From an uncultured Rhodospirillaceae bacterium (GTDB lineage Bacteria; Pseudomonadota; Alphaproteobacteria; Dongiales; Dongiaceae), in NCBI GenBank assembly GCA_964594035.1, contig CAZQLF010000002.1:1-24830 (forward strand): 24,830 nt of DNA, written 5' to 3'. A program made the position numbers and the translations under genes. Shown here piece after piece: positions 1,053 to 22,889 of the stretch (its first letter is position 1; every line of letters begins with the position of its first letter). The notes below the pieces were generated by a model. That model saw only the letters and a program-made list of their open reading frames with translations. It ran no database searches and was not told the origin of the DNA.

Positions 1053-2249
1053 ATGCCAGGACGCAATGCGCTTTTCATCCCCGGCCCGACCAACATGCCC
1101 GACGCCATTCGCGTGGCCATGGATCTTCCGCTCGAAGATCAGCGCTCGCCGGACTTCCCGGCGCTTACTCTGGGCCTGTTTCAGGATCTGAAGAAGATCT
1201 TCAAGACGAGCACGGGCCAGGTCTTCCTGTTTCCCGCCAGCGGCAGTGGCGGCTGGGAAGCAGCGATCACCAACACGCTTTCTCCCGGCGATCATATTCT
1301 CGCTGCCCATCACGGCCAGTTCTCCCAGCAGTGGATCGAGCTGTGCCGCCGGCACGAGATGAAGGTCGAGATCCTGGAGGCCGAGTGGGGCGACGGTGCG
1401 CCGATCGAGCGCTATACCGAGCGGCTGGCCGCCGACAAGGCGCATGAGATCAAGGCCGTGCTCATCTGCCACAACGAGACAGCGACGGGTGTCACCTCGG
1501 ATGTCGCAGCACTGCGCAAGGCGCTGGATGCCGCGGGCCATCCCGCCCTGCTCTATGCCGACGGCGTCAGCTCGATCGCCAGCATCGACTTCCGCATGGA
1601 TGAATGGGGCGTCGACCTCGCCGTTTGCGGCTCCCAGAAGGGGTTCATGCTGCCGACAGGCCTCGCCATCGTCGCCGCCAGCCAGAAAGCGCTGGCCGCG
1701 GGCGCTTCGGCAAAATGTCCGCGTTTCTTTTTCGATTTCGCCGACATGATCCGCACCAATAAGGACGGCTATTTTCCCTACACGCCCGCAAGCACGCTGT
1801 TGCGCGGCCTGCGCGCTTCCATCGACCTGCTGTTGGGCGAGGGCCTGGAGGCGGTGTTTGCCCGGCATCACCGCATGGCCGAGGCTGTGCGCCAGGCTGT
1901 CGCGGCCTGGGGTCTTTCACTCTGTGCCAAAGAGCCGCGCTGGTACTCGGATACGGTCAGCGCCATTCGGGTGCCCGACGGTTTCGATGCCAACGACGTC
2001 GTGAAGCATGCCTACCACCGCTACAACCTGTCGCTCGGCATCGGGCTCTCGAGAGTGGCGGGCAAGGTGTTCCGCATCGGCCACCTCGGCAGCCTCAATG
2101 AGCTCATGATCCTGATGGCGTTGGCCGGTTCGGAAATGGCCATGCATGATGCGGGCATCAAGGTGCCGCTCGGCAGCGGCGTTGCTGCCGCGCAGGCACA
2201 TTTCCTCGCAAGCCGCCAGCCGGCCGGCATCGCCCGCGCCGCCGAATAG
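1053..2249 (+). CDS. sgaA: Serine--glyoxylate aminotransferase (class V PLP aminotransferase)
   Basis: LFIPGPTN N-terminus, HNETATGV, DGVSS, GSQKG (PLP lysine) and FRIGHLG motifs. Directly upstream of mtkAB-ppc. Confidence 0.88.
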   Translation: MPGRNALFIPGPTNMPDAIRVAMDLPLEDQRSPDFPALTLGLFQDLKKIFKTSTGQVFLFPASGSGGWEAAITNTLSPGDHILAAHHGQFSQQWIELCRRHEMKVEILEAEWGDGAPIERYTERLAADKAHEIKAVLICHNETATGVTSDVAALRKALDAAGHPALLYADGVSSIASIDFRMDEWGVDLAVCGSQKGFMLPTGLAIVAASQKALAAGASAKCPRFFFDFADMIRTNKDGYFPYTPASTLLRGLRASIDLLLGEGLEAVFARHHRMAEAVRQAVAAWGLSLCAKEPRWYSDTVSAIRVPDGFDANDVVKHAYHRYNLSLGIGLSRVAGKVFRIGHLGSLNELMILMALAGSEMAMHDAGIKVPLGSGVAAAQAHFLASRQPAGIARAAE

Positions 2250-2258
2250 GAAAACGCC

Positions 2259-3458
2259 ATGGACATTCACGAGTATCAGGCCAAGGAAATTCTCTCGGAG
2301 TTCGGCGTGCCCGTTCCTCGCGGCGGTCTCGCCTACAGCCCGGAACAGGCCGCCTATCGTGCGCGGGAGATCGGCGGCGAGCGTTGGGTGGTGAAGGCCC
2401 AGATCCACGCCGGCGGCCGCGGCAAGGCCGGCGGGATCAAGCTCTGCCGTGACGAGCACCAGGTGTGGGACGCAGCCGACGCACTGCTCGGCAAGCGTCT
2501 GGTCACCAGTCAGACGGGCCCGCGCGGCAAGGGGGTCTATCGCCTCTATGTCGAGGCGGCTACCGACATTGCCAAGGAGTTCTATCTGGGCCTGGTGTTG
2601 GACCGCAAGAGCGAGCGCGTCATGGTGGTGGCATCGTCGGCCGGCGGAATGGAGATCGAGGACATCAGCCATGATCGGCCCGAAACCCTGATCCGCCTTG
2701 CTATCGATCCTGCCGTCGGCATGCAGCCTTTCCAGGCGCGTGAGCTCGCTTTCGCGCTCGGATTCGAGCATGGCCAGGTGGCCAAGGCCGTGGAACTCCT
2801 CCTCGGCAGCTATCGTGCCTTTCGCGAGCTGGACGCCACCATGGTCGAGATCAATCCCCTGGTCCTGACTGCCGAGGGCCAGCTTTTGGCCCTCGATGCC
2901 AAGATGAGCTTCGACGACAACGCGCTCTTTCGCCGCCCGCATGTGTCGGAGCTGCGCGACAAGTCACAGGAGGATGCGCGCGAGACGAAAGCGACCGACC
3001 GGGGCCTCAGCTATGTCGGCCTGGACGGCAACATCGGCTGCATCATCAACGGCGCCGGCCTCGCCATGGCCACCATGGACATGATCATGCATGCCGGTGG
3101 CGAGCCTGCCAACTTCCTTGACATCGGCGGCGGCGCCACGCCCGAGCGGGTTGCCAAGGCCTTTGGCCTTGTCCTCTCCGACGAACGGGTCGAGGCCATC
3201 CTCGTCAACATCTTCGCCGGCATCAACCGCTGCGACTGGGTGGCGCAGGGCATCATCCAGGCGCTTCAGAAGGTCGAGATGAAGGTGCCGCTGGTGGTGC
3301 GTCTTGCCGGGACTCATGCCGAGGAGGGCCGGCGGGCGCTCGAAGGCAGCAGCTTTCCCATCATTGCTGCCGACAGCCTGGCCGATGCCGCCCTGAAGGT
3401 GGTCCGTGCCTGGCAGGACAGGCGAGCCGCCCAGGCACCGTTGAGGGCCGCATCATGA
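2259..3458 (+). CDS. mtkA: Malate--CoA ligase (malate thiokinase) beta subunit
   Basis: SucC-fold motifs ([32 protein letters not shown]). MtkA-type [13 protein letters not shown] where SucC has NIFGGIVRCD. Serine-cycle context. Confidence 0.85.
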
Positions 3459-4345
3459 GCGTTCTGCTACATGCCGATACCAGGGTCATTGTCCAGGGCA
3501 TCACGGGCAAGATCGGAACCTTTCACGCCCAGGAAATGCTGGATTACGGCACCAAGGTCGTCGGCGGCGTGACGCCCGGAAAGGGCGGGACCAGCCATCT
3601 CGGCCTGCCGATTTTCAACTCCGTGCGCGAAGCCGTGCGCCTTACCGGCGCTGCGGCCAGCATCGTCTTTGTCCCGCCGCCGTTTGCCGCCGATTCCATC
3701 ATGGAAGCGGCCGATGCCGGAATCCGGTTGTGCGTTGCGATCACCGACGGCATTCCCGCCCAGGACATGATCCAGGTGAAGCGTTTCATGCGCCGCTACA
3801 AGGCGAAGAATCGCATGCAGCTGGTCGGCCCCAATTGCGCAGGCGTCATCAGCCCGGGCAAGGCGCTGCTCGGAATCATGCCGGGCCACATCTACCAGCC
3901 GGGGAATGTCGGCATTGTCGGGCGCTCCGGTACGCTGGGCTACGAAGCGGCCGCCCAGATGCAGGCACTCGGCATCGGCGTCTCCACCAGCGTGGGCATC
4001 GGCGGCGATCCCATCAACGGCAGCTCGTTCAAGGATATCCTCGAGATGTTCGAGCAGGACCCGGAAACGAAAGCCGTCATGATGATCGGTGAAATCGGCG
4101 GCCCGCAGGAAGCCGAGGCAGCCCTTTTCATCCGCAAGAACATGACCAAGCCGACCGTGGGTTACATCGCCGGTCTTACGGCGCCGAAGGGCCGCCGCAT
4201 GGGCCATGCCGGCGCAATCATCTCCGCCTTCGGCGAAAGCGCCGATGAGAAGGTCGAGATCCTGCAGGAGGCCGGCGTGACCGTGGCCCCCAATCCCTCC
4301 GAACTTGGTTCGACCGTAGCGCGCGTGCTCGCGCAGGCGGCGTGA
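3455..4345 (+). CDS. mtkB: Malate--CoA ligase alpha subunit
   Basis: SucD fold (QGITG, GPNCAG, SRSGTL-like [18 protein letters not shown] with phospho-His). MtkB-like [16 protein letters not shown] insert. ATGA overlap with mtkA. Confidence 0.85.
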
Positions 4346-7101
4346 GGGGGAATACGCGGACGGTGACCCGCCAGGCAGCGGGCGCGGGCGCCATGGCAGC
4401 GGCCAAAGGCACCGTGGAACAACGTGATCCCGTGCTCGGGCGCGACGGTTATATCGGCCAGATCATCGATTTTCTCTTCGAGCGGCTGCGCGAGGTGGTG
4501 CGATTGCGCCAGCCGGAAATCGAGGCCTACCTGCTCGACGAGCGCTTGCTGGATGACCTGGCGCCGGCCCTGCAGCTGCGCGCGCTCCAAGCATACGGTA
4601 TCTGGTTTCAACTGGCGTCCATCGCCGAAGAAAACGCCGCCATGCGCGCGCGACGGCGCATTGAGCGCGACGGCGGGCCGGACGCCGTGCCGGGAAGCTT
4701 TTCCCATGTCATCGCGAAAGCCGCAGCAACCGGCATCGAGGCCAGCGCCGTTCAGGACCTGCTGGAACGCGGCCTGGTCCAGCCGGTATTGACCGCCCAT
4801 CCGACCGAGGCCAAGCGCGTGACCGTGCTGGACATCCACCGGCGCATCTATCGACTGCTGGTCGACCTGGAATCGCCGCGCTGGACCCGGGGTGAGCGTG
4901 CCGCCCTTGTCGGCAATCTTCGCAATGAGATCGACCTGCTCTGGCTCACCGGCGAGATCCGCCTGGAAAAGCCGAGCGTCGAACAGGAAGTGGCGTGGGG
5001 CCTGCACTTCTTCGACGAAACCATTTTTGGGCGCATTCCTGAACTACTGGAGCGTCTTGATGTTGCGCTCTCCCGCCACTACCCGGAAACTGTGTTCCGC
5101 ATCCCGCCGTTCTTTCGCTTCGGCTCCTGGATCGGTGGCGACCGCGACGGCAACCCCTTCGTCACCGCCGATGTAACGCGTCATGCGCTTGCGAGCAGCC
5201 GGGAAGCCACGCTCCAGCATTACCGCAATGAGATATCGGGGTTACTGCGCAGTCTGAGCGTAGCAGCTCATAGCGTCAGCGTGCCTTCAGCCTTTCTCAC
5301 GCGCCTGGAGACAGCACTCGAGCGTAGCGGAAAGCGCGGGGCCATCGAGGCGCGCAATCCGGGGGAAGTATTCCGGCAGTTCCTGAATTGCATCAACGGC
5401 CGGCTCGAGGCGAGGGGGCCAGCCGCCTACCAGCATCCCGACGAACTCGTCGCCGATCTTTTGGCCCTCGAGGAAGGTCTCGCAGGCGCGCGCTGTACGG
5501 GCCTGGCGCGCAGCCTTGTGCGGCCGGTGCGCCGCCAGGCCGAAACCTTTGGCTTCTGCGCTGCCAGCCTCGACATTCGCCAGAATGCCAAGGTGACCAA
5601 TCGCACGCTGCAAGCGATCTGGCGGCAAAGTCACAACGACCGCGAACCGCCTGCGGCCGACAGCGATGTATGGAAGGCCTGGCTGACGGCCGAATTGGCC
5701 CGCCCGCTCGACGGACTGCCTGCGTTCGAGGGCCTGTCGGAGGAAGCCGCGGAGGCGCTCAGCGTGTTTCGCCTGATGCGCGAGGAGGCCGCGAAGGATC
5801 GGACTTCGCTCGGTGCCTTCATCCTCAGCATGACGGCACGGGCCACCGACATTCTCGGGGTCTTCCTGCTAGCGAAATATGCTGGCCTTTTTGCCGATAG
5901 TCAGGGGATCGAAAGCTGCAGCATCCGTGTTGTCCCGCTGTTCGAGACGATTGGCGATCTCCAGCGCGCGCCGGCCATCCTGCGCGAGCTGCTGTCGCTG
6001 CCGCTGGTACGGCGTACGATACGCGCGCTCGGACGCAGCCAGGAGGTGATGCTTGGCTACTCCGATTCCAACAAGGACGGTGGTTTCCTCTCCGCCAACT
6101 GGGCGCTGTTCAAGGCACAGATCGAGCTTTCGCGCATTGGGCGTCAGTTCGGTATCCAGGTCACATTTTTCCACGGTCGTGGCGGATCGGTCAGCCGGGG
6201 CGGCGCGCCAACAGGCCGGGCCATAGAGGCCCAGCCGGCCGACTCTGTGGCGGGCCGGCTGCGCATGACGGAGCAAGGTGAAGTTGTTTCCGCGCATTAT
6301 GCCAATCGCGGCACGGCGCTCGCCCATATGGAATTGATGGCCTCAAGCGTGCTGAGCCACAGCCTGCGCGGGGCCGCAACACCTCTCGCAGCCAATCCGG
6401 AATTCGACGAGGCCATGGAGGCGCTGGCGGGCGTCTCCGAAGCAGCCTATCGCCGTCTCGCTGACCATCCTGGCCTGGTTGCCTATTATCATGCGGCGAG
6501 CCCGCTTGCCGAACTCGCCTGGCTCAAGCTGGGCTCGCGGCCGACGCACCGGTTTGGCGCACGCACGCTGGACGATCTTCGCGCGATTCCCTGGGTGTTC
6601 GGCTGGAGCCAGAACCGTCATCTCATTCCAGGATGGTATGGCATCGGCACGGCGCTCCATCGGTTTGTGGAAATAAGAGGGATCGCCGGCAAGGGCCTGT
6701 TGCAGCGCATGTTCGGCTCATTCCCTCTTTTTCGCCTCGTTGTCGACGAAGTCGAAAAGACCCTGCCGCTGGTCGACCTTGCCGTTGCCCGGCGCTTCGC
6801 AGCACTTGTCGGCGACGCCGCTTTGCGCGAGGAAATCCTCGGGATGATCGAAACCGAGTACGACCGCGCGAAGCGCTGCCTGCTTGACCTCACTGGCGAA
6901 AACGCACTCCTCGAGCGCTTCCCCAACTATCGCAGCCGTCTCGACAGCCGCTTGCCCATGCTGAACCGTGCCAGCTATCTCCAGGCCGAGCTGCTCGGCC
7001 GCGTCCGCTCGCGCCAGGTGAGCGCGGAACAGGACGAGCAGTTCGTCCCTCTTCTTCTTTCCATCAACTGTGTTGCAGCGGGGCTGGGCTGGACAGGCTG
7101 A
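4342..7101 (+). CDS. ppc: Phosphoenolpyruvate carboxylase (start uncertain: GTG 4342, GTG 4363 or ATG 4393)
   Basis: [46 protein letters not shown] and [10 protein letters not shown] motifs. Confidence 0.96.
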
Positions 7102-7104
7102 GCG

Positions 7105-7995
7105 CTAGCCTGCTGCAGCACTCGCGCTCTGGCGCTGGCTTCGTGCGCCATAGCCGACCGCCAGGATCACCGCGCCCACGATCAGGGCACCGCCCATGGC
7201 GGCATTTACAGTTGGCTGCTCGCCCACACCCAGCCAGGTCCAGAACGGGTTGAACAGCACGTCCAGCAGGTTGATCAGGACGGCCAGCACCGCCGGCACA
7301 TAGCGCGCGCCGACGACGAAGAGATAGAGCGGCAGGGCGAGCTGCACGACGGCCATGGCGACGAGGATGGCGATATCGCGCAGCGGCACCGCCGGTATGC
7401 CGTGGAACAGCGCTAGCACGACACTCATGCCGGCAGCGCCAATGATGATTGCCGGTACCATGTCGACATTGCGAAACCAGCGCAGCGATACCGACTGGCC
7501 GGCAAAGCAGAAGGCAACGCCCAGCGCCATGATCGTGCCGAGCCAGCTTCCGTGGCCCAGTTCCTGGCGCATGGTGATGTAGACGCCGGCGAGCGCGATG
7601 AATGCCGCCAGCCAGATCACGGCACTAGTCCTCTCGCGCAGCAGCAGCCAGGCGAGGATGGCGGCAAACAGCGGCGATGTGGCGGCCACGCACGAGACAT
7701 TGGCGACGGGAGCGGATGCCAGTGAGGTGATGTAGAGCGTAGAGCCGGAAGCAAAAAAACCACCGCAGAGCAACGTGCCCTTCGGTTCCATCGCCCTGAA
7801 ACGGGCGTACACCTCGCCGCGGTAACGGAATGCCAGATAGATGAACAAGGTCAGCGCCGTGAAGAAAGCGCGGTAAATCGCGATCGTCACGCCGTCGGTG
7901 GTGACGAGCGAGCGAACGAAAATGCCGGACAGACTCCAGAAAAGGGTCGCACCAAGCATCAGCGCGACGCCCTTGACGTAATCCGACTTGTGCAA
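7105..7995 (-). CDS. DMT/EamA-family transporter (about 10 TM)
   Basis: 296 aa, highly hydrophobic, two EamA-like halves (TSPLFAAILAWLLLRER; LLDVLFNPFWTWLGVGEQP). TTG start. Confidence 0.88.
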   Translation of the reverse strand: MHKSDYVKGVALMLGATLFWSLSGIFVRSLVTTDGVTIAIYRAFFTALTLFIYLAFRYRGEVYARFRAMEPKGTLLCGGFFASGSTLYITSLASAPVANVSCVAATSPLFAAILAWLLLRERTSAVIWLAAFIALAGVYITMRQELGHGSWLGTIMALGVAFCFAGQSVSLRWFRNVDMVPAIIIGAAGMSVVLALFHGIPAVPLRDIAILVAMAVVQLALPLYLFVVGARYVPAVLAVLINLLDVLFNPFWTWLGVGEQPTVNAAMGGALIVGAVILAVGYGARSQRQSASAAAG

Positions 7996-8031
7996 CGGCG
8001 TGCTGATGGGGACCCGCTACCTGAACAACGT

Positions 8032-8069
8032 GAGCAAGATTGGATCAGTAAACTGATCCGATCTTGCTC
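8032..8069. repeat. 38-bp near-perfect palindrome (18-bp arms, 1 mismatch, 2-nt centre)
   Basis: GAGCAAGATTGGATCAGT-AA-ACTGATCCGATCTTGCTC read directly. No adjacent poly-T tract. Confidence 0.9.
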
Positions 8070-8118
8070 CGGTGGGTCAGTTTAGCCTGTCAGATGTAGC
8101 GGCGAAAGTTGCGGCCGC

Positions 8119-8349
8119 TCAGGCCCGCCTCTGCAGCTGCGCAACTGAAACCCGTCCCTTGAATTGCCGGCTCGATGGGACACTCACCGCGGCAATGGCG
8201 GGCTTGGTCTTCGCCGCGAGGAGCAGCGTAACAGCGGGCGGCGTGATCGCAGCAAAGCGGCCGAGGCGGCGCAGGGTTGCGCGGCGCGACTGGTCGATGG
8301 CCGTATCCAAAGGTGAAGGCAGCACGCCTTCCTGATCTCTGGTTTGCAT
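8119..8349 (-). CDS. 76-aa single-unit twin-arginine-leader-like peptide (putative secreted peptide or RiPP precursor)
   Basis: ATG 8349: MQTRDQEGVLPSPLDTAIDQS-RRATLRRLGRFAAITPPAVTLLL-AAKTKPAIA-AVSVPSSRQFKGRVSVAQLQRRA. Homologous to each unit of the upstream gene. Product assignment is inference. Confidence 0.75.
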   Translation of the reverse strand: MQTRDQEGVLPSPLDTAIDQSRRATLRRLGRFAAITPPAVTLLLAAKTKPAIAAVSVPSSRQFKGRVSVAQLQRRA

Positions 8350-8924
8350 CGGTAGGTTCTTTCTCAGGCTGCCTTGCAAAGCTGAGGTACCAAGACCGGC
8401 TCCTTGAACTGCCGGCTGGATTCCGGGGCGGGACTGACGATCGCCTGCGCGCGCCTGGTGCTGGCCGACAAGAGGAGCGTGACGGCCGGCGGCGTGATGG
8501 CGGCAAAGCGCCCCAGCCGGCGCAAGGTCGCCCGGCGGCGCTGATCGATCATCGCATCGCCTGCCCGTTGCTGGAGCTTCGGCACTGAGACGTGCTCCTT
8601 GAACTTCCGGCTGGATATCGGTCCGATGCTCACCGCGACAGCGCGCTTTGGTTTCCCCGCAAGAAGAAGGGTTATGGCCGGTGGCGTGATGGCGGCAAAG
8701 CGCCCCAGGCGGCGCAGCGTTGCGCGGCGGCTTTGGTTGATTGCCGCTTCATCAGGATGCGGCTGAAGCTTCGACACAGTAACCGGTTCCTTGAGCTGCC
8801 GGCTGGAAGTCGGCGCTGGCGAGACCACGGCCTTGGCGCTCTTGGTCGCTGCCGACAGGAGCAAGGTGACGGCCGGTGGCGTGACTGCGGCGAAGCGGCC
8901 AAGGCGGCGCAAGGCCGCGCGGCG
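8218..8924 (-). repeat. Four coding repeats of a 23-codon block at 8856-8924, 8661-8729, 8469-8537 and 8218-8286
   Basis: Blocks translate RRA(A/T)LRRLGRFAA(V/I)TPPA(V/I)TLLL. Spacing is 195, 192 and 251 nt. Confidence 0.95.
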
Positions 8925-8987
8925 CGCCGGATCGGCCGCATTTTGTGCCGGCGATTGCGAATCCTGGCGCTTCGTGAGGTCGGTCAT
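8364..8987 (-). CDS. 207-aa three-unit repeat protein (tandem twin-arginine leader + variable core cassettes)
   Basis: ATG 8987 with GAGGGG SD 9 nt upstream. Units repeat at 65 and 64 aa. The leader motif is conserved in amino acids despite many synonymous changes, which supports real coding. Confidence 0.82.
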   Translation of the reverse strand: MTDLTKRQDSQSPAQNAADPARRAALRRLGRFAAVTPPAVTLLLSAATKSAKAVVSPAPTSSRQLKEPVTVSKLQPHPDEAAINQSRRATLRRLGRFAAITPPAITLLLAGKPKRAVAVSIGPISSRKFKEHVSVPKLQQRAGDAMIDQRRRATLRRLGRFAAITPPAVTLLLSASTRRAQAIVSPAPESSRQFKEPVLVPQLCKAA

Positions 8988-9022
8988 CGGCGCACACCCC
9001 TCATAGCCTGCTCGACTTTGCG

Positions 9023-9051
9023 AGCTTAAGCCGCCGGGCGCGGGCGAACAA
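9023..9051 (-). promoter_or_regulatory. Possible sigma70 promoter for the peptide genes (TTGTTC-N17-TAAGCT)
   Basis: Motif match between the tRNA 3' end and the 8987 start. Confidence 0.3.
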
Positions 9052-9080
9052 GGCAAGATGAATTAACGATTTCTGAGGGG

Positions 9081-9157
9081 TGGTCGGAGTGAGAGGATTC
9101 GAACCTCCGGCCTCTGCGTCCCGAACGCAGCGCTCTACCAGGCTGAGCTACACTCCG
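9081..9157 (-). tRNA. tRNA-Pro(CGG)
   Basis: 77 nt. Acceptor stem CGGAGTG/CACTCCG, D-arm GCTC/GAGC, anticodon arm CTGCG-TTCGGGA-CGCAG, T-loop GTTCGAAT, encoded CCA. Confidence 0.98.
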
Positions 9158-9182
9158 ATGCCGGTTCTCTTGCGGGCCGCGC

Positions 9183-9212
9183 GTTATAGCTCTTCCACTC
9201 GGATTGAGGCAA
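9183..9212 (-). promoter_or_regulatory. tRNA promoter TTGCCT-N18-TATAAC followed by a GC-rich discriminator
   Basis: Motif plus GCGGCCCGC downstream, as expected for stable-RNA promoters. Confidence 0.55.
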
Positions 9213-9236
9213 GGGCCGCCAGGCCCATCCCGCAGC

Positions 9237-10259
9237 CTAATAGGCGCGCTCGATGCAGAAATCGACGACGTCCAGCAGGGCGCGTTTTTCCGGCCCTTCC
9301 GGGAAAATACCCAGCGCATCGCGGGCGATGGCACCGTAATGGCGGGCGCGGGCAGCGGTATCGCGCAACGCCCCGTGGCCCTCCATCAGGCTGATGGCAC
9401 GCCGCAGATCGGCCTCCTCCTGCTCCAGCTTTTCCAGGCAGCGGCGCCAGAAGACCCGTTCTCCCTCATCGCCGCGCCGATAAGCGAGGATGACGGGCAG
9501 CGTGATCTTGCCTTCGCGGAAATCGTCGCCGACCGTCTTGCCGAGCTCCGCCTGCTTTGCCGAGAAGTCCAGCACGTCGTCGATCAACTGAAAGGCGATG
9601 CCGAGGTTGAGGCCGTAGCTTTCCAGAGCCTCCTCTTCCACCCGGGGACGCTCAGCTACGACCGCACCCACGCGGCAGGCGGCAGCGAACAGGGCTGCGG
9701 TCTTGCAGCGGATGACATCGAGATAGGCCTGCTCGGAGGTTTCGGTATCGTTCGTGGTCACGAGCTGTAGGACTTCACCCTCGGCAATGATCGCGGACGC
9801 ACCCGAGAGAATTTCCAGTACGCGCAGCGAACCATCCGCCACCATCAACTGGAAGGCGCGGCTAAACAGGAAATCGCCGACCAGCACGCTCGCCTGGTTG
9901 CCCCACACCGAATTGGCGGTGGCAAGGCCGCGGCGCAGATCGCTCTCATCGACGACATCGTCATGCAACAGCGTGGCGGTATGAATGAACTCGACGCAGG
10001 CAGCCAACGCCTGGTGGCGCCCACCCGTGTAGCCGCAGAGGCGTGCCGAGGCCAGCGTCAGCATGGGGCGCAGCCGCTTGCCGCCGGCGGCAATAAGGTG
10101 CCCAGCAAGCTGCGGGATCAGCGGCACCGGGCTGTGCATATTCTTGAGAATCAGCGCATTGACGACATGCAGATCCTCGGCCACCAGACGCTGCAATTCG
10201 TCCAGCGACGGCCGGCGGGCGCGACCCCGTTCTTCATCCAGGTTAACGATAACAGCCAC
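9237..10259 (-). CDS. ispB: All-trans polyprenyl diphosphate synthase (IspB/DdsA type); likely GTG start at 10259 (ORF track 10271)
   Basis: GGKRLRP, LLHDDVVD (FARM), RRG, FQLIDDVLD (SARM) and DDFREGKITLP motifs. Confidence 0.93.
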   Translation of the reverse strand: MAVIVNLDEERGRARRPSLDELQRLVAEDLHVVNALILKNMHSPVPLIPQLAGHLIAAGGKRLRPMLTLASARLCGYTGGRHQALAACVEFIHTATLLHDDVVDESDLRRGLATANSVWGNQASVLVGDFLFSRAFQLMVADGSLRVLEILSGASAIIAEGEVLQLVTTNDTETSEQAYLDVIRCKTAALFAAACRVGAVVAERPRVEEEALESYGLNLGIAFQLIDDVLDFSAKQAELGKTVGDDFREGKITLPVILAYRRGDEGERVFWRRCLEKLEQEEADLRRAISLMEGHGALRDTAARARHYGAIARDALGIFPEGPEKRALLDVVDFCIERAY

Positions 10260-10314
10260 GCGCGACCCCAATTCTTGACCCAGGCCCGCCTAGCGGCGAG
10301 CATGGAGGGGATGG

Positions 10315-10342
10315 AGCATAGAAGGGCGGGACGGGGGGTCAA
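10315..10342 (-). promoter_or_regulatory. sigma70 promoter for ispB (TTGACC-N16-TATGCT)
   Basis: Good consensus match upstream of ispB. Confidence 0.55.
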
Positions 10343-10417
10343 GGTGTGGCGGTTCGTCGCGCCTGACCCTGTATTTTCCCGGCCCAACTCAGCCAGGATT
10401 TGCGCCGGAGGCATTGG

Positions 10418-10633
10418 TTGAAGGAACTGGCCCGCACGAACGACCTGGTGCGCATGTCCTTTCTGCGCGCACTGTTGAAAGACGCCGGAATCGAGTTCGA
10501 CGTATTCGATTCCAACATGAACATCGCCGAGGGTGGCAATGCGGTGCTGCTGGCGCCCCGGCTGATGGTCGCCACCAAGGACTACGAAAGGGCCAAGCGC
10601 CTGCTGCGCGATGCTGGCGTCGATGAGGGCTGA
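10418..10633 (+). CDS. DUF2007-like small putative signal-transducing protein
   Basis: TTG start after GGAGG: MKELARTNDLVRMSFLRALLKDAGIE...PRLMV. Usual alphaproteobacterial position between ispB and a methyltransferase. Confidence 0.8.
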   Translation: MKELARTNDLVRMSFLRALLKDAGIEFDVFDSNMNIAEGGNAVLLAPRLMVATKDYERAKRLLRDAGVDEG

Positions 10634-20069: not shown

Positions 20070-20939
20070 GTGAGGCTGTTGGCGCCGGTGTATTGGGGCG
20101 TGGTTCCCGACCTTCTTGCCCGTTTTCAAACACGCAAGCCGACCGAGAAATCGCAGGCATTCCTTCTGCAGGCGCGCGCGATCCTTGGAGCTGAAACCGA
20201 CAAGACCCTGCTTGCGCTCCACCGAACGAACGAAGGGGCGGTCCATCAGCGCATGATCATCGTCGCGGCGCATCGGCGCCGGGGCGGCTGGAATCCTGAA
20301 ATCGTGCTCACCGGGCGCGAACGGCTGGATCGGGCGCACGCAAAGGGCCGTGGCGTCATCTTGTGGTCCGATTCTTTTGCGCACGCGGCCGTCATCGGAA
20401 AACGCGCCCTGGCTGAGGCAGGCTTTCGCTGCTGGCATCTCAGCACCAGCGGGCACGGCATCCTGAATTCGCCCCTGGCGAACAGGTATCTCAATCCGCG
20501 GGTGATCGAGGCTGAGCTGCGCTATCTCGCCGGGCGCATCGTCTTCGAGCGCAGCGCTCCGACGGCGGCAGTCCGCCGGATGATAAAGGTTTTGTCCGAA
20601 AACGGTCTTGTTTCGCTTACCAACAATGCCTTCGCCGGCAAAGGGCTTGCCACACCTTTTGGCAAGGGTGCGGAGTTGCTTTTGGCGCAGACGCCGCTGC
20701 GCCTCGCCGCAATCCAGCGCGTGCCGCTATTGCCGTTCCAGATGATTGAACGTGATCGCTTCCACCGTTACGAGGTGATCCTGGGGCCCGATCTCAGCGA
20801 GACGCCGCGCGCCGACTCTGCCGATGCGCTGCAGGCGGTCGCATCGGCCTATGCGGCTTACCTGATTGAACGCGTGCAAGCACATCCGGAGCAGTTCTCT
20901 GGTTGGCCAATGGTGCGGCTGCTGGATCAGGACAGTTAG
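20070..20939 (+). CDS. Lipid A/lysophospholipid acyltransferase-like protein, divergent (N-terminus may extend to about 19974)
   Basis: GRERLDRAHAKGRGVILW block and C-terminal RVPLLP...RYEVILGP...P(E)QF-GW pattern of the LpxL-like family. Catalytic motif not evident. Confidence 0.6.
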   Translation: MRLLAPVYWGVVPDLLARFQTRKPTEKSQAFLLQARAILGAETDKTLLALHRTNEGAVHQRMIIVAAHRRRGGWNPEIVLTGRERLDRAHAKGRGVILWSDSFAHAAVIGKRALAEAGFRCWHLSTSGHGILNSPLANRYLNPRVIEAELRYLAGRIVFERSAPTAAVRRMIKVLSENGLVSLTNNAFAGKGLATPFGKGAELLLAQTPLRLAAIQRVPLLPFQMIERDRFHRYEVILGPDLSETPRADSADALQAVASAYAAYLIERVQAHPEQFSGWPMVRLLDQDS

Positions 20940-22018
20940 GCAGGGCGATACTTCGCCATCGCCTGTTTCAACCTGTCGTGCGGCAGTTCGTAGAGCGTGT
21001 GGCCCTGGAACCCGGACATGGTTTCCGCGGCCGTCAGCGCGTTGATGATCGCTTCTTCCGTCGCTTCTGCCGCTGCACGGAACAGCAGCGTCATCCGCTC
21101 GGCACCAAGCATGCGCACGTCGACATGCTGGGCATCGCGCGGAACGCTGTTTCCTGTGGCAAAGGCGAGGAAGATATCGCCACTGCCGTTGGCGCCGATG
21201 CCACCGGCCCAGCCGAGGCCCGTGGTGGCGCGGCGCGCCAAGCGCTGGCACTGGATCGGCAGCAGCGGTGCGTCAGTTGCCAGGATGACGATGATCGAAC
21301 CTTCCGTTGCTGTTGGCGCTGCCTGGAACGGCTCGGGATGGCCCGGCACAACAGGGTGATTAATCCCGCGGGCTACCGGGACCCCATCCACCCGCAGCAG
21401 ATCGCGCGCCCCGTAATTGGCTTGGACGAGCACGCCGACGGTAAAGCGGTCGCCACCTTCCGTGGCAATGCGGCTTGCCGTGCCGATGCCGCCCTTGAAT
21501 TCATGGCAGATCATGCCGGTGCCGCCGCCGACATTGCCTTCCTCGACCGGGCCGCCTTTGGCTTTTTCAAGCGCCTCATGGGCCATGGCTTCGGTGACGG
21601 GAAACGTCTCGGCATCGGAGAGCCAGCCGTCATGGGTCTCGGCCACCACTGGCAGGTGGAAGGCCTGCTTGATGCCTTTCTTCGCGGCATAACTGCAGAT
21701 GGCGTCGCGCACCACGCCCACACAATGGGTGCAGGTGATGCCGATGGGAGCGGAGAGCAGGCCCTGCTCGGCGAGCCAGATGGTGCCGGTCATCTCGCCA
21801 TTGCCGTTGAAGCTGTGAAATCCGGCAAAGCAGTAGTCGGTAAAGATGTTGCGATGGGGCCAGATCATCGTGACGCCGGTGCGCACCACCGCCGGCTTGT
21901 CGCGGATCAAGGTCGAATGGCCTACTTCGATGCCGGCCACGTCGGTGATGGCGTTCAACGGGCCGGTGGGCAAACGGCCAAGCTTGATCCCAAGGTCGCG
22001 CAGCCTGGCTCGTCCCAT
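20936..22018 (-). CDS. dmpA: P1-family (DmpA-like) L-aminopeptidase/D-esterase
   Basis: RLRDLGI, NAITDVAG, EEGNVGGGTGM, VQANYG, EG|SIIVILATDAP autocleavage site, GSGDIFLAF. Confidence 0.9.
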   Translation of the reverse strand: MGRARLRDLGIKLGRLPTGPLNAITDVAGIEVGHSTLIRDKPAVVRTGVTMIWPHRNIFTDYCFAGFHSFNGNGEMTGTIWLAEQGLLSAPIGITCTHCVGVVRDAICSYAAKKGIKQAFHLPVVAETHDGWLSDAETFPVTEAMAHEALEKAKGGPVEEGNVGGGTGMICHEFKGGIGTASRIATEGGDRFTVGVLVQANYGARDLLRVDGVPVARGINHPVVPGHPEPFQAAPTATEGSIIVILATDAPLLPIQCQRLARRATTGLGWAGGIGANGSGDIFLAFATGNSVPRDAQHVDVRMLGAERMTLLFRAAAEATEEAIINALTAAETMSGFQGHTLYELPHDRLKQAMAKYRPA

Positions 22019-22040
22019 GGCCTGAATCCTACATTCGGGG

Positions 22041-22889
22041 TTAGAACTTCGCCCAGTCGGGCTTGACGGGCGTCAGCCGGGAGGCGCCACTGATGAGGAC
22101 GCCCTGGCCGAGTGCCTCGAGGCGCACGAGGGCCAGACCCACATCGCCACTGGCGCTGCGCATTTCGCCGGCTTCCTTGTCGCCCAGCAGCAGTGGTGCT
22201 CCGAACTCCGGCACCGGTCCTTCGATTGCGACCGGCATCAGCCGCTTGCGCACCAGGCCGCGATAGCGCGTGCGTGCCGTCAACTCCTGGCCCATATAGC
22301 AGCCCTTGTCCCAGTCGATGGCATTCAGCTCGTCGAAGCCGTTCTCCAGCAGGATCGCCTTTTCGACCGGCAGGTCGCGGCTGCCATCGGGCACGCCAAG
22401 CGACATGCGCAACCGGTCGTAATCCTCGGCGCTTCCCGTCTCGGCCGGCAGTGAAGCGGCTGGCAGATAGGCGCGCGCGCCGAGCGTGGCCAGCCGCGGA
22501 TCGACGAAAGCGACTCCGCCGTGTTCGGCGCGCGCCTGACCGGCTTCGGGGGGAAGATGAAGCGTGCCCAGCGCATCATCGCCGAAATAGAGCCCGACCG
22601 AGAGCGCGTTCTCCTCGGCCAGCGCCACCTTTGAGCGCAGCTTGTAGAGTGTCAGGCGGCGCAACAGATCGGCACGCCGGGCGGCCTCGCATTCGATCAC
22701 CAGACGCTCGCCATCGACGGCGATGAAGATGTCGTGAAGATATTTGCCCTGCGCCGTGAGGAAGGCAGCGTAGATGGCCCGCGTCGGCGTGGCTTTGGCG
22801 ACGTCGTTCGATACCAGCCCCTGCAGGAAGGCCTGGCGGTCCTCGCCGGTGAGCGAGATCAAGGCGCGGTCGCGGGCAATCAGGAACAT
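22041..22889 (-). CDS. ygfZ: YgfZ/GcvT-family folate-binding protein
   Basis: GEDRQAFLQGLVSND, FLTAQGKYL and KGCYMGQE signature. Start refined to ATG 22889. Confidence 0.93.
   Translation of the reverse strand: MFLIARDRALISLTGEDRQAFLQGLVSNDVAKATPTRAIYAAFLTAQGKYLHDIFIAVDGERLVIECEAARRADLLRRLTLYKLRSKVALAEENALSVGLYFGDDALGTLHLPPEAGQARAEHGGVAFVDPRLATLGARAYLPAASLPAETGSAEDYDRLRMSLGVPDGSRDLPVEKAILLENGFDELNAIDWDKGCYMGQELTARTRYRGLVRKRLMPVAIEGPVPEFGAPLLLGDKEAGEMRSASGDVGLALVRLEALGQGVLISGASRLTPVKPDWAKF

Follow-up and report, generated by a model that had tools for sequence, protein, structure and literature searches.

The closest described relatives of the system considered here are ribosomal peptides modified by an HprK-like kinase and a nucleotidyltransferase (NTase). 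For the linear polyphosphorylated peptides (LPP) of Bacillota, Popov et al. (2026) described an RRE, an HprK-like kinase that polyphosphorylates Ser3 of the core, an NTP-transferase and a leader cut of the signal peptidase I type (PMC13381572). The RRE of the LPP pathway is discrete, an SpI-like leader peptidase and an MsbA-like exporter also take part, and the precursors, encoded by one to three genes per cluster, have conserved N-termini and variable C-termini, with Ser3 lying three residues after the cut (PMC13381572). In paeninodin and pseudomycoidin, an HprK-like kinase phosphorylates a Ser of the linear lasso precursor, and in pseudomycoidin a nucleotidyltransferase then adds a hexose to the Ser phosphate (PMC8498205). 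The LPP paper makes no mention of Proteobacteria, of leaders of the twin-arginine translocation (Tat) type or of fused RRE-kinases (PMC13381572). Here, we describe two adjacent genes, A and B, in a 24,830-nt stretch of DNA from an uncultured Rhodospirillaceae bacterium (contig CAZQLF010000002.1 of assembly GCA_964594035.1), hereafter the window, which together carry four repeated leader-peptide cassettes. Judged by sequence comparison, these genes may well form an orphan multi-cassette precursor array for a pathway of the RiPP type (peptides made on the ribosome and modified after translation) encoded elsewhere in the genome, a reading to which we give somewhat better than an even chance, and the array would most likely feed a peptide-phosphorylating kinase/NTase pair belonging to a mainly alphaproteobacterial pathway.

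Both genes lie on the minus strand. Gene A (8364-8987; 207 aa), recognized from its open reading frame (ORF), its translation and a homolog search, starts with an ATG at 8987 and consists of three fused cassettes, A1 (8757-8987), A2 (8562-8756) and A3 (8367-8561), with its stop codon at 8364-8366; gene B (8119-8349; 76 aa), recognized from ORF and translation, holds a single cassette. All cassettes present the same parts in the same order, namely a 23-aa twin-arginine leader, a basic 9-aa segment (c-region) ending in AxA, a Ser/Pro core of 5-7 aa and an SSRxFK tail. In A1, the leader block RRAALRRLGRFAAVTPPAVTLLL (8856-8924) is followed by the c-region SAATKSAKA (8829-8855), the core VVSPAPT (8808-8828), whose Ser stands at +3 after AxA, and the follower stub SSRQLKEPVTVSKLQ (8763-8807), which comprises only the Ser-Lys motif of Peptidase_S74. 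The corresponding parts of A2 are RRATLRRLGRFAAITPPAITLLL (8661-8729), AGKPKRAVA (8634-8660), VSIGPI (8616-8633, Ser at +2) and SSRKFKEHVSVPKLQ (8571-8615), and those of A3 are RRATLRRLGRFAAITPPAVTLLL (8469-8537), SASTRRAQA (8442-8468), IVSPAPE (8421-8441, Ser at +3) and SSRQFKEPVLVPQLC (8376-8420). Gene B has a leader block with the same letters as that of A3 (8218-8286), then AAKTKPAIA (8191-8217), the core AVSVP (8176-8190, Ser at +3) and the stub SSRQFKGRVSVAQLQ (8131-8175). Across the four units, the leader block reads RRA(A/T)LRRLGRFAA(V/I)TPPA(V/I)TLLL, with exactly three variable positions, and the tail follows the pattern SSR(Q/K)(L/F)K..V.V..L throughout. These genes, leader blocks, segments, cores and tails had all been reported in the initial annotation, a model's reading of the sequence alone, and its sequence statements hold on checking: both genes have 21 residues ahead of the first RR (RR at residue 22), and the cited codons are exact for the LLL of the leader (TTG CTC CTG / CTT CTT CTT / CTC CTC TTG / CTG CTC CTC) as well as for the Leu of RRLG (CTT/CTG/CTG/CTC). 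Its observation is thus confirmed, and its interpretation is partly supported.

Selection on the repeat was assessed by comparing nonsynonymous and synonymous differences (pN/pS, Nei-Gojobori) among the four window units and two orthologous units. The leader has a pN/pS of 0.135 at a pS of 0.48, at which synonymous sites are near saturation, and the SSRxFK stub has a value of 0.27, compared with 0.78 for the c-region and 0.66 for the segment preceding RR. The purifying selection on the leader that had been proposed from codon usage is therefore borne out, the ratio being far from 1. DNA identity between units is only 72-76%, a divergence too great for the unit repeat to be detected by Tandem Repeats Finder, which indicates that what maintains the repeat is conservation of the protein rather than recent gene conversion. 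Given this DNA divergence and the blockwise pN/pS values, the repeat is old, protein-coding and selectively maintained in two specific blocks, the leader and the tail. A DNA or RNA repeat element was also considered and rejected.

The window proteins belong to a large, unannotated and mainly alphaproteobacterial leader family. A homology search returned 57 relatives, and a profile search of 1.84 billion representative proteins returned 1006 at E<=1e-3, with a highly conserved N-terminus and hypervariable C-termini. The consensus drawn from 176 distinct leaders reads (D/E/A)RRx(F/A/V)L(K/R)(K/R)(L/C)G(R/K)FAAVTPPAVTLLL(A/S)(A/T), followed by AxA, and most h-region positions are kept at 80-100%. 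The parts beyond AxA fall into four types: minimal tails of 2-15 residues (e.g., VVISVK, VTS and QVISMAPAP); low-complexity Gly/His/Asn-rich tails of 20-60 residues, found in Mesorhizobium, Bradyrhizobium and Ensifer, often as several paralogs per genome; the S74 type, in which a short core precedes a Peptidase_S74 domain that is either complete (proteins of 150-225 aa) or lacks its middle (115-126 aa); and the stub type, to which the window belongs, with only the first ~15 residues of S74 left. The first Ser after the predicted AxA stands at +2 to +4 in 151 of 179 family sequences, and at +3, +2, +3 and +3 in the window units. Fused multi-unit forms are confined to the clade of the window, in line with the earlier remark that internal repeated leaders are unusual, since only two of the 150 top hits in the 1.84-billion-protein library have two units, both of them close relatives. 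Pfam and NCBIfam scans gave nothing significant for either window protein or for the Mesorhizobium-type peptides; the sole near-match of the window proteins was to the lasso-leader model NF033521. A lasso precursor reading is rejected, because this match, 12 residues long, scores 18.9 bits where the cutoff is 19, and no cyclase or B2 peptidase occurs near the loci. Literature searches using the NCBIfam and Pfam names of the partner enzymes and using Tat-leader RiPPs found no description of the leader family.

Two further observations concern the wider family. In Mesorhizobium (loci L010, L027, L032, L036 and others), many Gly-rich tails share the C-terminal motif GGSHGGSRSGDPN, and shorter paralogs share GNGWGDKNHIHxGPPGQ. 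Typical family loci also occur on short contigs binned as Candidatus Udaeobacter (L004, L006 and L015) or Nitrospira (L063), and these occurrences in non-proteobacterial bins could be due to mis-binning or horizontal transfer.

The leader follows the sequence rules of a Tat signal, and export by this route is predicted on that basis. The twin-arginine motifs of the window units read SRRATLRR, ARRAALRR and RRRATLRR, and the resemblance noticed in the initial annotation extends to the family consensus: of 176 leaders, 171 keep RR, 97% have Leu at RR+3 and ~80% have K/R at RR+4 and RR+5. The h-region comprises 15-17 uncharged residues with a Kyte-Doolittle mean of 1.4-1.8, the best 19-residue hydropathy window (1.07-1.46) stays below the usual transmembrane threshold, and the c-regions carry 2-3 K/R each and end in AKA, AVA, AQA and AIA.

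At locus L001 and on a JGI contig, genes of the S74 type adjoin a gene for an NTP_transf_5 (PF14907) protein and one for a protein of ~370-400 aa, in which an N-terminal PqqD/RRE domain is combined with a C-terminal HprK-related P-loop kinase domain. The PqqD domain scores above the Pfam threshold in the Mesorhizobium and Phreatobacter kinases (28.3 and 25.2 bits vs 23.4), the N-terminus of the L001 kinase is homologous along its length to the PqqD/RRE-bearing versions, and the kinase domain is HprK_rel_A-like (TIGR04352-like; E 2e-19 to 2e-23). Linkage was counted in the ~2.5 kb surrounding the peptide genes at 80 loci from reference genomes. The kinase was found at 51 of these loci, together with the NTase at 50. 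A first clustering of neighbors over all loci was swamped by spurious antisense ORFs in these genomes of high GC content and was replaced by a cross-genus analysis of 19 lineages from different genera, in which the kinase occurs in 19/19 and the NTase in 18/19; no other partner is conserved across genera, and the two enzyme genes are found in varying order and orientation. No dedicated peptidase, SpI-like or otherwise, and no transporter or MsbA-like exporter is conserved across the 19 lineages, none was seen at the Mesorhizobium locus L019, and neither a lasso cyclase nor a B2 peptidase was found at any locus examined. The link to PqqD/RRE, kinase and nucleotidyltransferase genes, which the initial annotation had brought up, is thus real and strong for the family, although this context is absent from the window itself.

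Several details of these enzyme loci deserve mention. Database records give the kinase homologs no name beyond 'hypothetical protein' and assign them PF27840 (ScmC), in some cases together with PF05402. At L019 (3007-7608), Bac_transf, Wzy_C (O-antigen-ligase-like) and two unannotated ORFs stand immediately upstream of the peptide/kinase/NTase module. At L005 (10025-11879) and L089 (3450-5720), a Cupin_8 (JmjC-like) gene accompanies that of a minimal peptide (…GRRPILRKLGRFAAV…AKA + 6-8 aa), and to this pair L005 adds a CPT-like P-loop kinase and L089 a 2-oxoglutarate-Fe(II) oxygenase; all three may act as extra tailoring enzymes.

The genomic setting of the array was compared with that of its relatives. 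The same locus (ppdK...glyS/glyQ...ispB, tRNA-Pro, array, EamA) is present in a related metagenome-assembled genome (MAG) as L002, with two separate single-unit stub genes, the second of which is orthologous to gene B. Other relatives have at least 1+1+2 units (L084) or single units, again beside EamA, and at least four other genomes or contigs retain the stub architecture at the syntenic locus, as do five additional clusters at 50% identity. Since relatives differ in units at the same site, unit number and fusion state change rapidly at a stable locus, and units A2 and A3 are a lineage-specific in-frame expansion. No modifying enzyme lies within 10 kb of the L002 array. The family often has orphan precursor loci. 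Among the 16 multi-locus assemblies with an orphan locus, a kinase-linked locus is also present in 15, and the 16th is the sister genome of the window, the L002 MAG, in which the module was then found by a kinase search. This module lies on contig_24219 (L088) of assembly ERZ25039543, which also contains contig_53004 (L005), part of the MAG of L002, and comprises an NTase and an intact RRE-kinase that is 70% identical to that of L001 over 381 residues. The 13-kb L088 locus contains no family peptide, and the slot taken by the S74-type genes at L001 is empty. At L089, the kinase and NTase genes share one cluster with the gene of a minimal peptide and two S74-type genes. In the sister genome, therefore, the enzyme module has no substrate gene nearby and the array has no enzyme genes nearby, and this arrangement is the strongest available support for the view that the window array is the precursor set of such enzymes. 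As a side note on annotation, the public kinase call in L088 starts ~36 codons late (6001 vs 5893), clipping part of the RRE domain.

The tail can be traced to Peptidase_S74. PF13884 matches the long relatives at 25-28 bits against a gathering threshold of 22, model position 1 falling on the first Ser of SSRQLK, and through these relatives the SSR(Q/K)(L/F)K of the four units can be placed on model positions 1-6. An invariant Ser-x4-Lys pair, with the Lys five residues after the Ser, is found in 24/24 aligned members, including the window stubs. In MyRF and endoNF, this Ser and Lys form the catalytic dyad, and the cut falls just N-terminal to the Ser (P586|S587 in MyRF); cleavage in both requires a beta 'donut' and a C-terminal trimerizing coiled coil, and in MyRF, an obligate trimer, the dyad-bearing strand is cut inside the donut of the neighboring subunit (PMC8326128). 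The window proteins have no Pfam match and their units stop ~15 residues past the dyad, so the rest of the S74 domain is not present, and since donut and coiled coil are absent, the tail is, by its sequence, best described as an S74-derived follower motif and not as an S74 peptidase. The initial annotation had the SSRxFK pattern right and missed its origin as the N-terminal Ser-Lys cleavage motif of Peptidase_S74. An AlphaFold2 monomer model of a long S74-type relative (mean pLDDT 52) was too poor for testing the geometry, and no S74 structure turned up when PDB sequences were searched with a profile. At L001 (4300-5132), on the JGI contig and at L003, S74-type genes stand in adjacent sets of one long form with full S74 and one or two short forms, which keep the dyad and the C-terminal helix and lack the WRYK…HIGPYAEDF middle; such sets may form mixed trimers.

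The orphan-precursor reading starts from what is established here about cassette anatomy, selection, family membership, the linkage of the family to its enzymes, the S74 origin of the tail and the dynamics of the locus. From these, we infer a pathway made up of RRE binding, Ser phosphorylation, Tat export, two cleavages and the resulting final products. The 23-aa block would be bound by the PqqD/RRE domain fused to the HprK-like kinase, with GRFAAITPPAVTLLL and RRLGRFAAITPPAV as candidate docking stretches of the leader. The kinase would phosphorylate, possibly repeatedly, the Ser 2-4 residues past AxA, and the NTP_transf_5 enzyme may attach a further group to the Ser phosphate. The peptide, modified in the cytoplasm, would then be exported by the general Tat pathway by means of the same leader and cut at AxA by signal peptidase I, a route that would take the place of the SpI-like peptidase and ABC exporter dedicated to LPP in Bacillota. 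The S74-derived SSRxFK...L follower would mark the C-terminal boundary of the core. The complete S74 domain of full-length relatives would remove itself by a cut at X|SS, and the stub form would need a factor acting in trans, if it is cut at all. Such a cut at X|SS would part the fused units, leaving each downstream unit ~25 residues ahead of RR, which is comparable to the 21 in the free-standing genes.

Several points weigh against this account. Its weakest point is the release of the internal cassettes A2 and A3, because a Tat signal inside a protein is not expected to work and the stub is not self-cleaving by the known S74 mechanism. Tat signals are normally functional only at the N-terminus, a placement that holds for A1 and B and fails for A2 and A3, whose leaders begin at residues 87 and 151 of gene A; no protease that separates fused units was identified, and the stubs retain the dyad strand without the donut and coiled coil. 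No kinase, NTase or S74 gene is present anywhere in the 24.8-kb window, so that precursor and enzyme genes, which lie together at 51/80 family loci, are apart in the window as in L002; the enzyme link for the genome of the window depends on the sister MAG, and no stub-type array was seen directly beside the enzymes. Moreover, apart from the 12-residue near-threshold match, no motif connects the leader with those of LPP or lasso peptides. Finally, some family members would be left with cores of 2-3 residues after the AxA cut, which would be odd for a secreted peptide; such short tails may mean that the leader sometimes stays in place or that the product is a small molecule.

Four other explanations were weighed against the orphan-precursor reading. 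The array might simply encode small periplasmic or secreted peptides exported by Tat, with only the first leaders in use, the internal repeats serving as passenger and the kinase and NTase not acting on them. All Tat-signal sequence rules are satisfied, and the absence of modifying enzymes from the window and from the 10 kb around the L002 array agrees with this idea. However, h-regions are not normally conserved in sequence, yet GRFAAVTPPAVTLLL is near-invariant across genera and the 'mature' part is hypervariable, a combination that indicates a dedicated binding partner. As the internal A2 and A3 leaders are also under the same strong purifying selection as the N-terminal ones, and the sister genome holds an enzyme module without a local substrate gene, plain export seems unlikely. 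It seems more improbable still that the array is a trans-cleaved polyprotein of the S74 type, whose stubs would act as a 'cable' threading into the 'donut' of a full-length S74 paralog to be cut at X|SS. The start of the S74 model on the first Ser of SSRQLK in long relatives, the invariant S and K at 5-residue spacing in the 24 aligned members (stubs included), the purifying selection on the stub, and the MyRF precedent, in which a strand bearing both dyad residues is cut in the donut of a neighbor at P586/S587 (PMC8326128), all speak for such cleavage; but no S74 gene was found in the window, L002 or L088, trimerization by a C-terminal coiled coil would be needed and is absent from the stubs, and the structure model of the long relative (pLDDT 52) is too poor to judge the geometry. 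This idea is a sub-hypothesis on processing and is compatible with an orphan precursor array.

If the hydrophobic blocks were uncleaved transmembrane segments, the product could be a small polytopic or anchored membrane protein that works whole, as the three evenly spaced hydrophobic stretches of gene A, with Arg clusters on the N-side of each, might suggest. These stretches are, however, only 15-17 residues long with two central prolines, their best 19-residue hydropathy lies under the usual transmembrane threshold, an alternating topology would break the positive-inside rule for unit 2, and the orthologous L002 locus works equally as separate single-unit genes, so that we consider a membrane protein highly unlikely. 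Decay into non-functional relics of duplicated S74-type genes could account for units truncated relative to the 115-225 aa relatives and for the absence of a partner gene nearby; it is largely refuted by the selection data (pN/pS 0.13 for the leader and 0.27 for the stub at near-saturated synonymous divergence), the reading frames are intact and the stub architecture is conserved at the syntenic locus elsewhere, which leaves this idea with a very small probability.

Comparison with the described systems suggests, as the best reading of the orphan array, a variant of a known RiPP kind that combines a Tat-type leader, a fused RRE-kinase, an S74-derived follower, multiple cassettes and an orphan location. 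The claim of a wholly new system made in the initial annotation is not borne out, since the enzyme pair is already known from paeninodin-type lasso peptides and LPP (PMC13381572). Like LPP, the family combines a conserved leader with a variable core (in the array, pN/pS 0.135 for the leader vs 0.78 for the c-region), an RRE, a kinase and an NTP-transferase, together with a predicted cut site of the signal peptidase I type and a Ser close to it (+3 in LPP; +2 or +3 in the window units), whose phosphorylation here is predicted. LPP clusters are often found in polysaccharide loci, and Mesorhizobium loci of the family lie beside Bac_transf and Wzy_C. On the other hand, the hosts differ (Bacillota vs mainly Alphaproteobacteria) and the leaders are unrelated, of the Tat type RRxFLK...GRFAAVTPPAVTLLL here and YxxPxVLxHQxIxFETxxS in LPP, a motif not present in any window unit. 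In addition, the RRE is fused to the kinase in the family and discrete in LPP, and the family clusters have neither an SpI-like peptidase nor an MsbA exporter of their own. The family also differs in its much shorter cores, in its S74 follower domains or stubs, in the possible fusion of cassettes within one multi-unit protein and in precursors that can be encoded far from the enzymes. The tailoring of paeninodin and pseudomycoidin likewise involves the same enzyme pair on a Ser of a ribosomal peptide, whereas the family loci lack a lasso cyclase and a B2 peptidase.

Likenesses extend to three further systems. The long relatives match PF13884 as do the Peptidase_S74 domains (endosialidase CIMCD and MyRF ICA), and Ser-x4-Lys is present in every window unit; the window units, however, keep ~15 residues without 'donut', coiled coil or upstream beta-helix passenger, and in the family the domain is attached to a ~60-aa leader peptide and not to a fiber or transcription factor. 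Some Tat signals are bound by dedicated chaperones of the TorD/DmsD/NapD type, which provide cytoplasmic proofreading while the passenger matures. With its RRx#LK motif, mild h-region, basic c-region and AxA, the family leader resembles these signals, and a leader-binding protein would parallel proofreading; in contrast, the family h-region keeps its sequence from genus to genus, each passenger measures a few residues and a single polypeptide can contain the signal several times. Multi-core RiPP precursors that repeat their recognition sequences are known from cyanobactins of the PatE type. Each core of the array is similarly flanked by its own N- and C-terminal recognition elements, and cassette number varies in relatives, but what the array repeats is a whole leader and not just a short recognition element, the two systems have unrelated enzymes, and the array is in part distributed over separate genes.

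The array most likely serves a proteobacterial counterpart of a pathway whose descriptions have so far been limited to Gram-positive bacteria. More tentatively, and with the balance of probability against it, a new class of ribosomal peptides could be envisaged, mainly in Alphaproteobacteria, in which the leader serves both as RRE dock and Tat signal, S74 or its stub sets the C-terminus of a phospho(glyco)peptide of 5-9 residues, and the internal leaders of the window clade are each used after stub cleavage, giving four exported mini-peptides from one operon. If the orphan-precursor reading is true, HprK-kinase/NTP-transferase peptide chemistry, so far the domain of Bacillota LPPs and lasso peptides, would extend to Gram-negatives; the housekeeping Tat and signal peptidase route may stand in for a dedicated peptidase and exporter as a general design principle; and it would be unexpected for the C-terminus of a core to be set by a self-cleaving domain of the phage-tailspike/MyRF type attached to a ribosomal precursor. 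An unnamed family of ~1000 representative proteins, with several paralogs per Mesorhizobium genome, would gain a concrete functional hypothesis. With four natural core variants behind near-identical leaders, the array offers a convenient test case, and it draws attention to a blind spot of genome mining, namely that the enzymes serving a precursor array can be encoded far away from it.

Genes A and B are probably co-transcribed on one transcript, because gene B starts 14 nt past the TGA of gene A. A GAGGGG Shine-Dalgarno-like site (8997-9002, minus strand), found by direct reading of the sequence, lies 9 nt upstream of the gene A ATG. The array is flanked by tRNA-Pro(CGG) (9081-9157) on one side and by a gene for an EamA-family transporter (7105-7995) on the other. 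The interval from the gene B stop to the EamA gene contains an inverted repeat (8021-8080, minus strand; 29-nt arms, 83% complementary, 2-nt loop), a probable transcription stop or RNA processing/stabilizing hairpin for the array; no clear T-run accompanies it. A sigma-70 scan returned no promoter and a terminator scan nothing convincing for the array, and an Rfam scan of 7000-10500 found tRNA-Pro and no other RNA family.

A metagenome scan with gene A recovered a single locus, L087, on the independent metagenome contig JACXTT010155359.1, which belongs to the same organism: the tail of unit A3, gene B and EamA are identical to those of the window. This contig breaks exactly within unit A3, and short-read assemblers apparently have trouble with the array, so that unit counts in other assemblies may be too low.

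The window, which is the entire 24.8-kb contig, otherwise carries housekeeping and serine-cycle genes. A 387-aa ORF at 20903-22066 (plus strand) was considered as a relative of the kinase and rejected, as it is unrelated to the family kinase and has no Pfam match; it may be spurious and overlaps a 360-aa minus-strand ORF at 20936-22018. On the plus strand at 1053-7101, a run of the serine-cycle type comprises a class-V aminotransferase (sga-like), malate thiokinase/succinyl-CoA-ligase-like alpha and beta subunits, and a 919-aa ORF resembling phosphoenolpyruvate carboxylase, assigned by translation alone. This gene run suggests a methylotrophic or C1-assimilating alphaproteobacterium.

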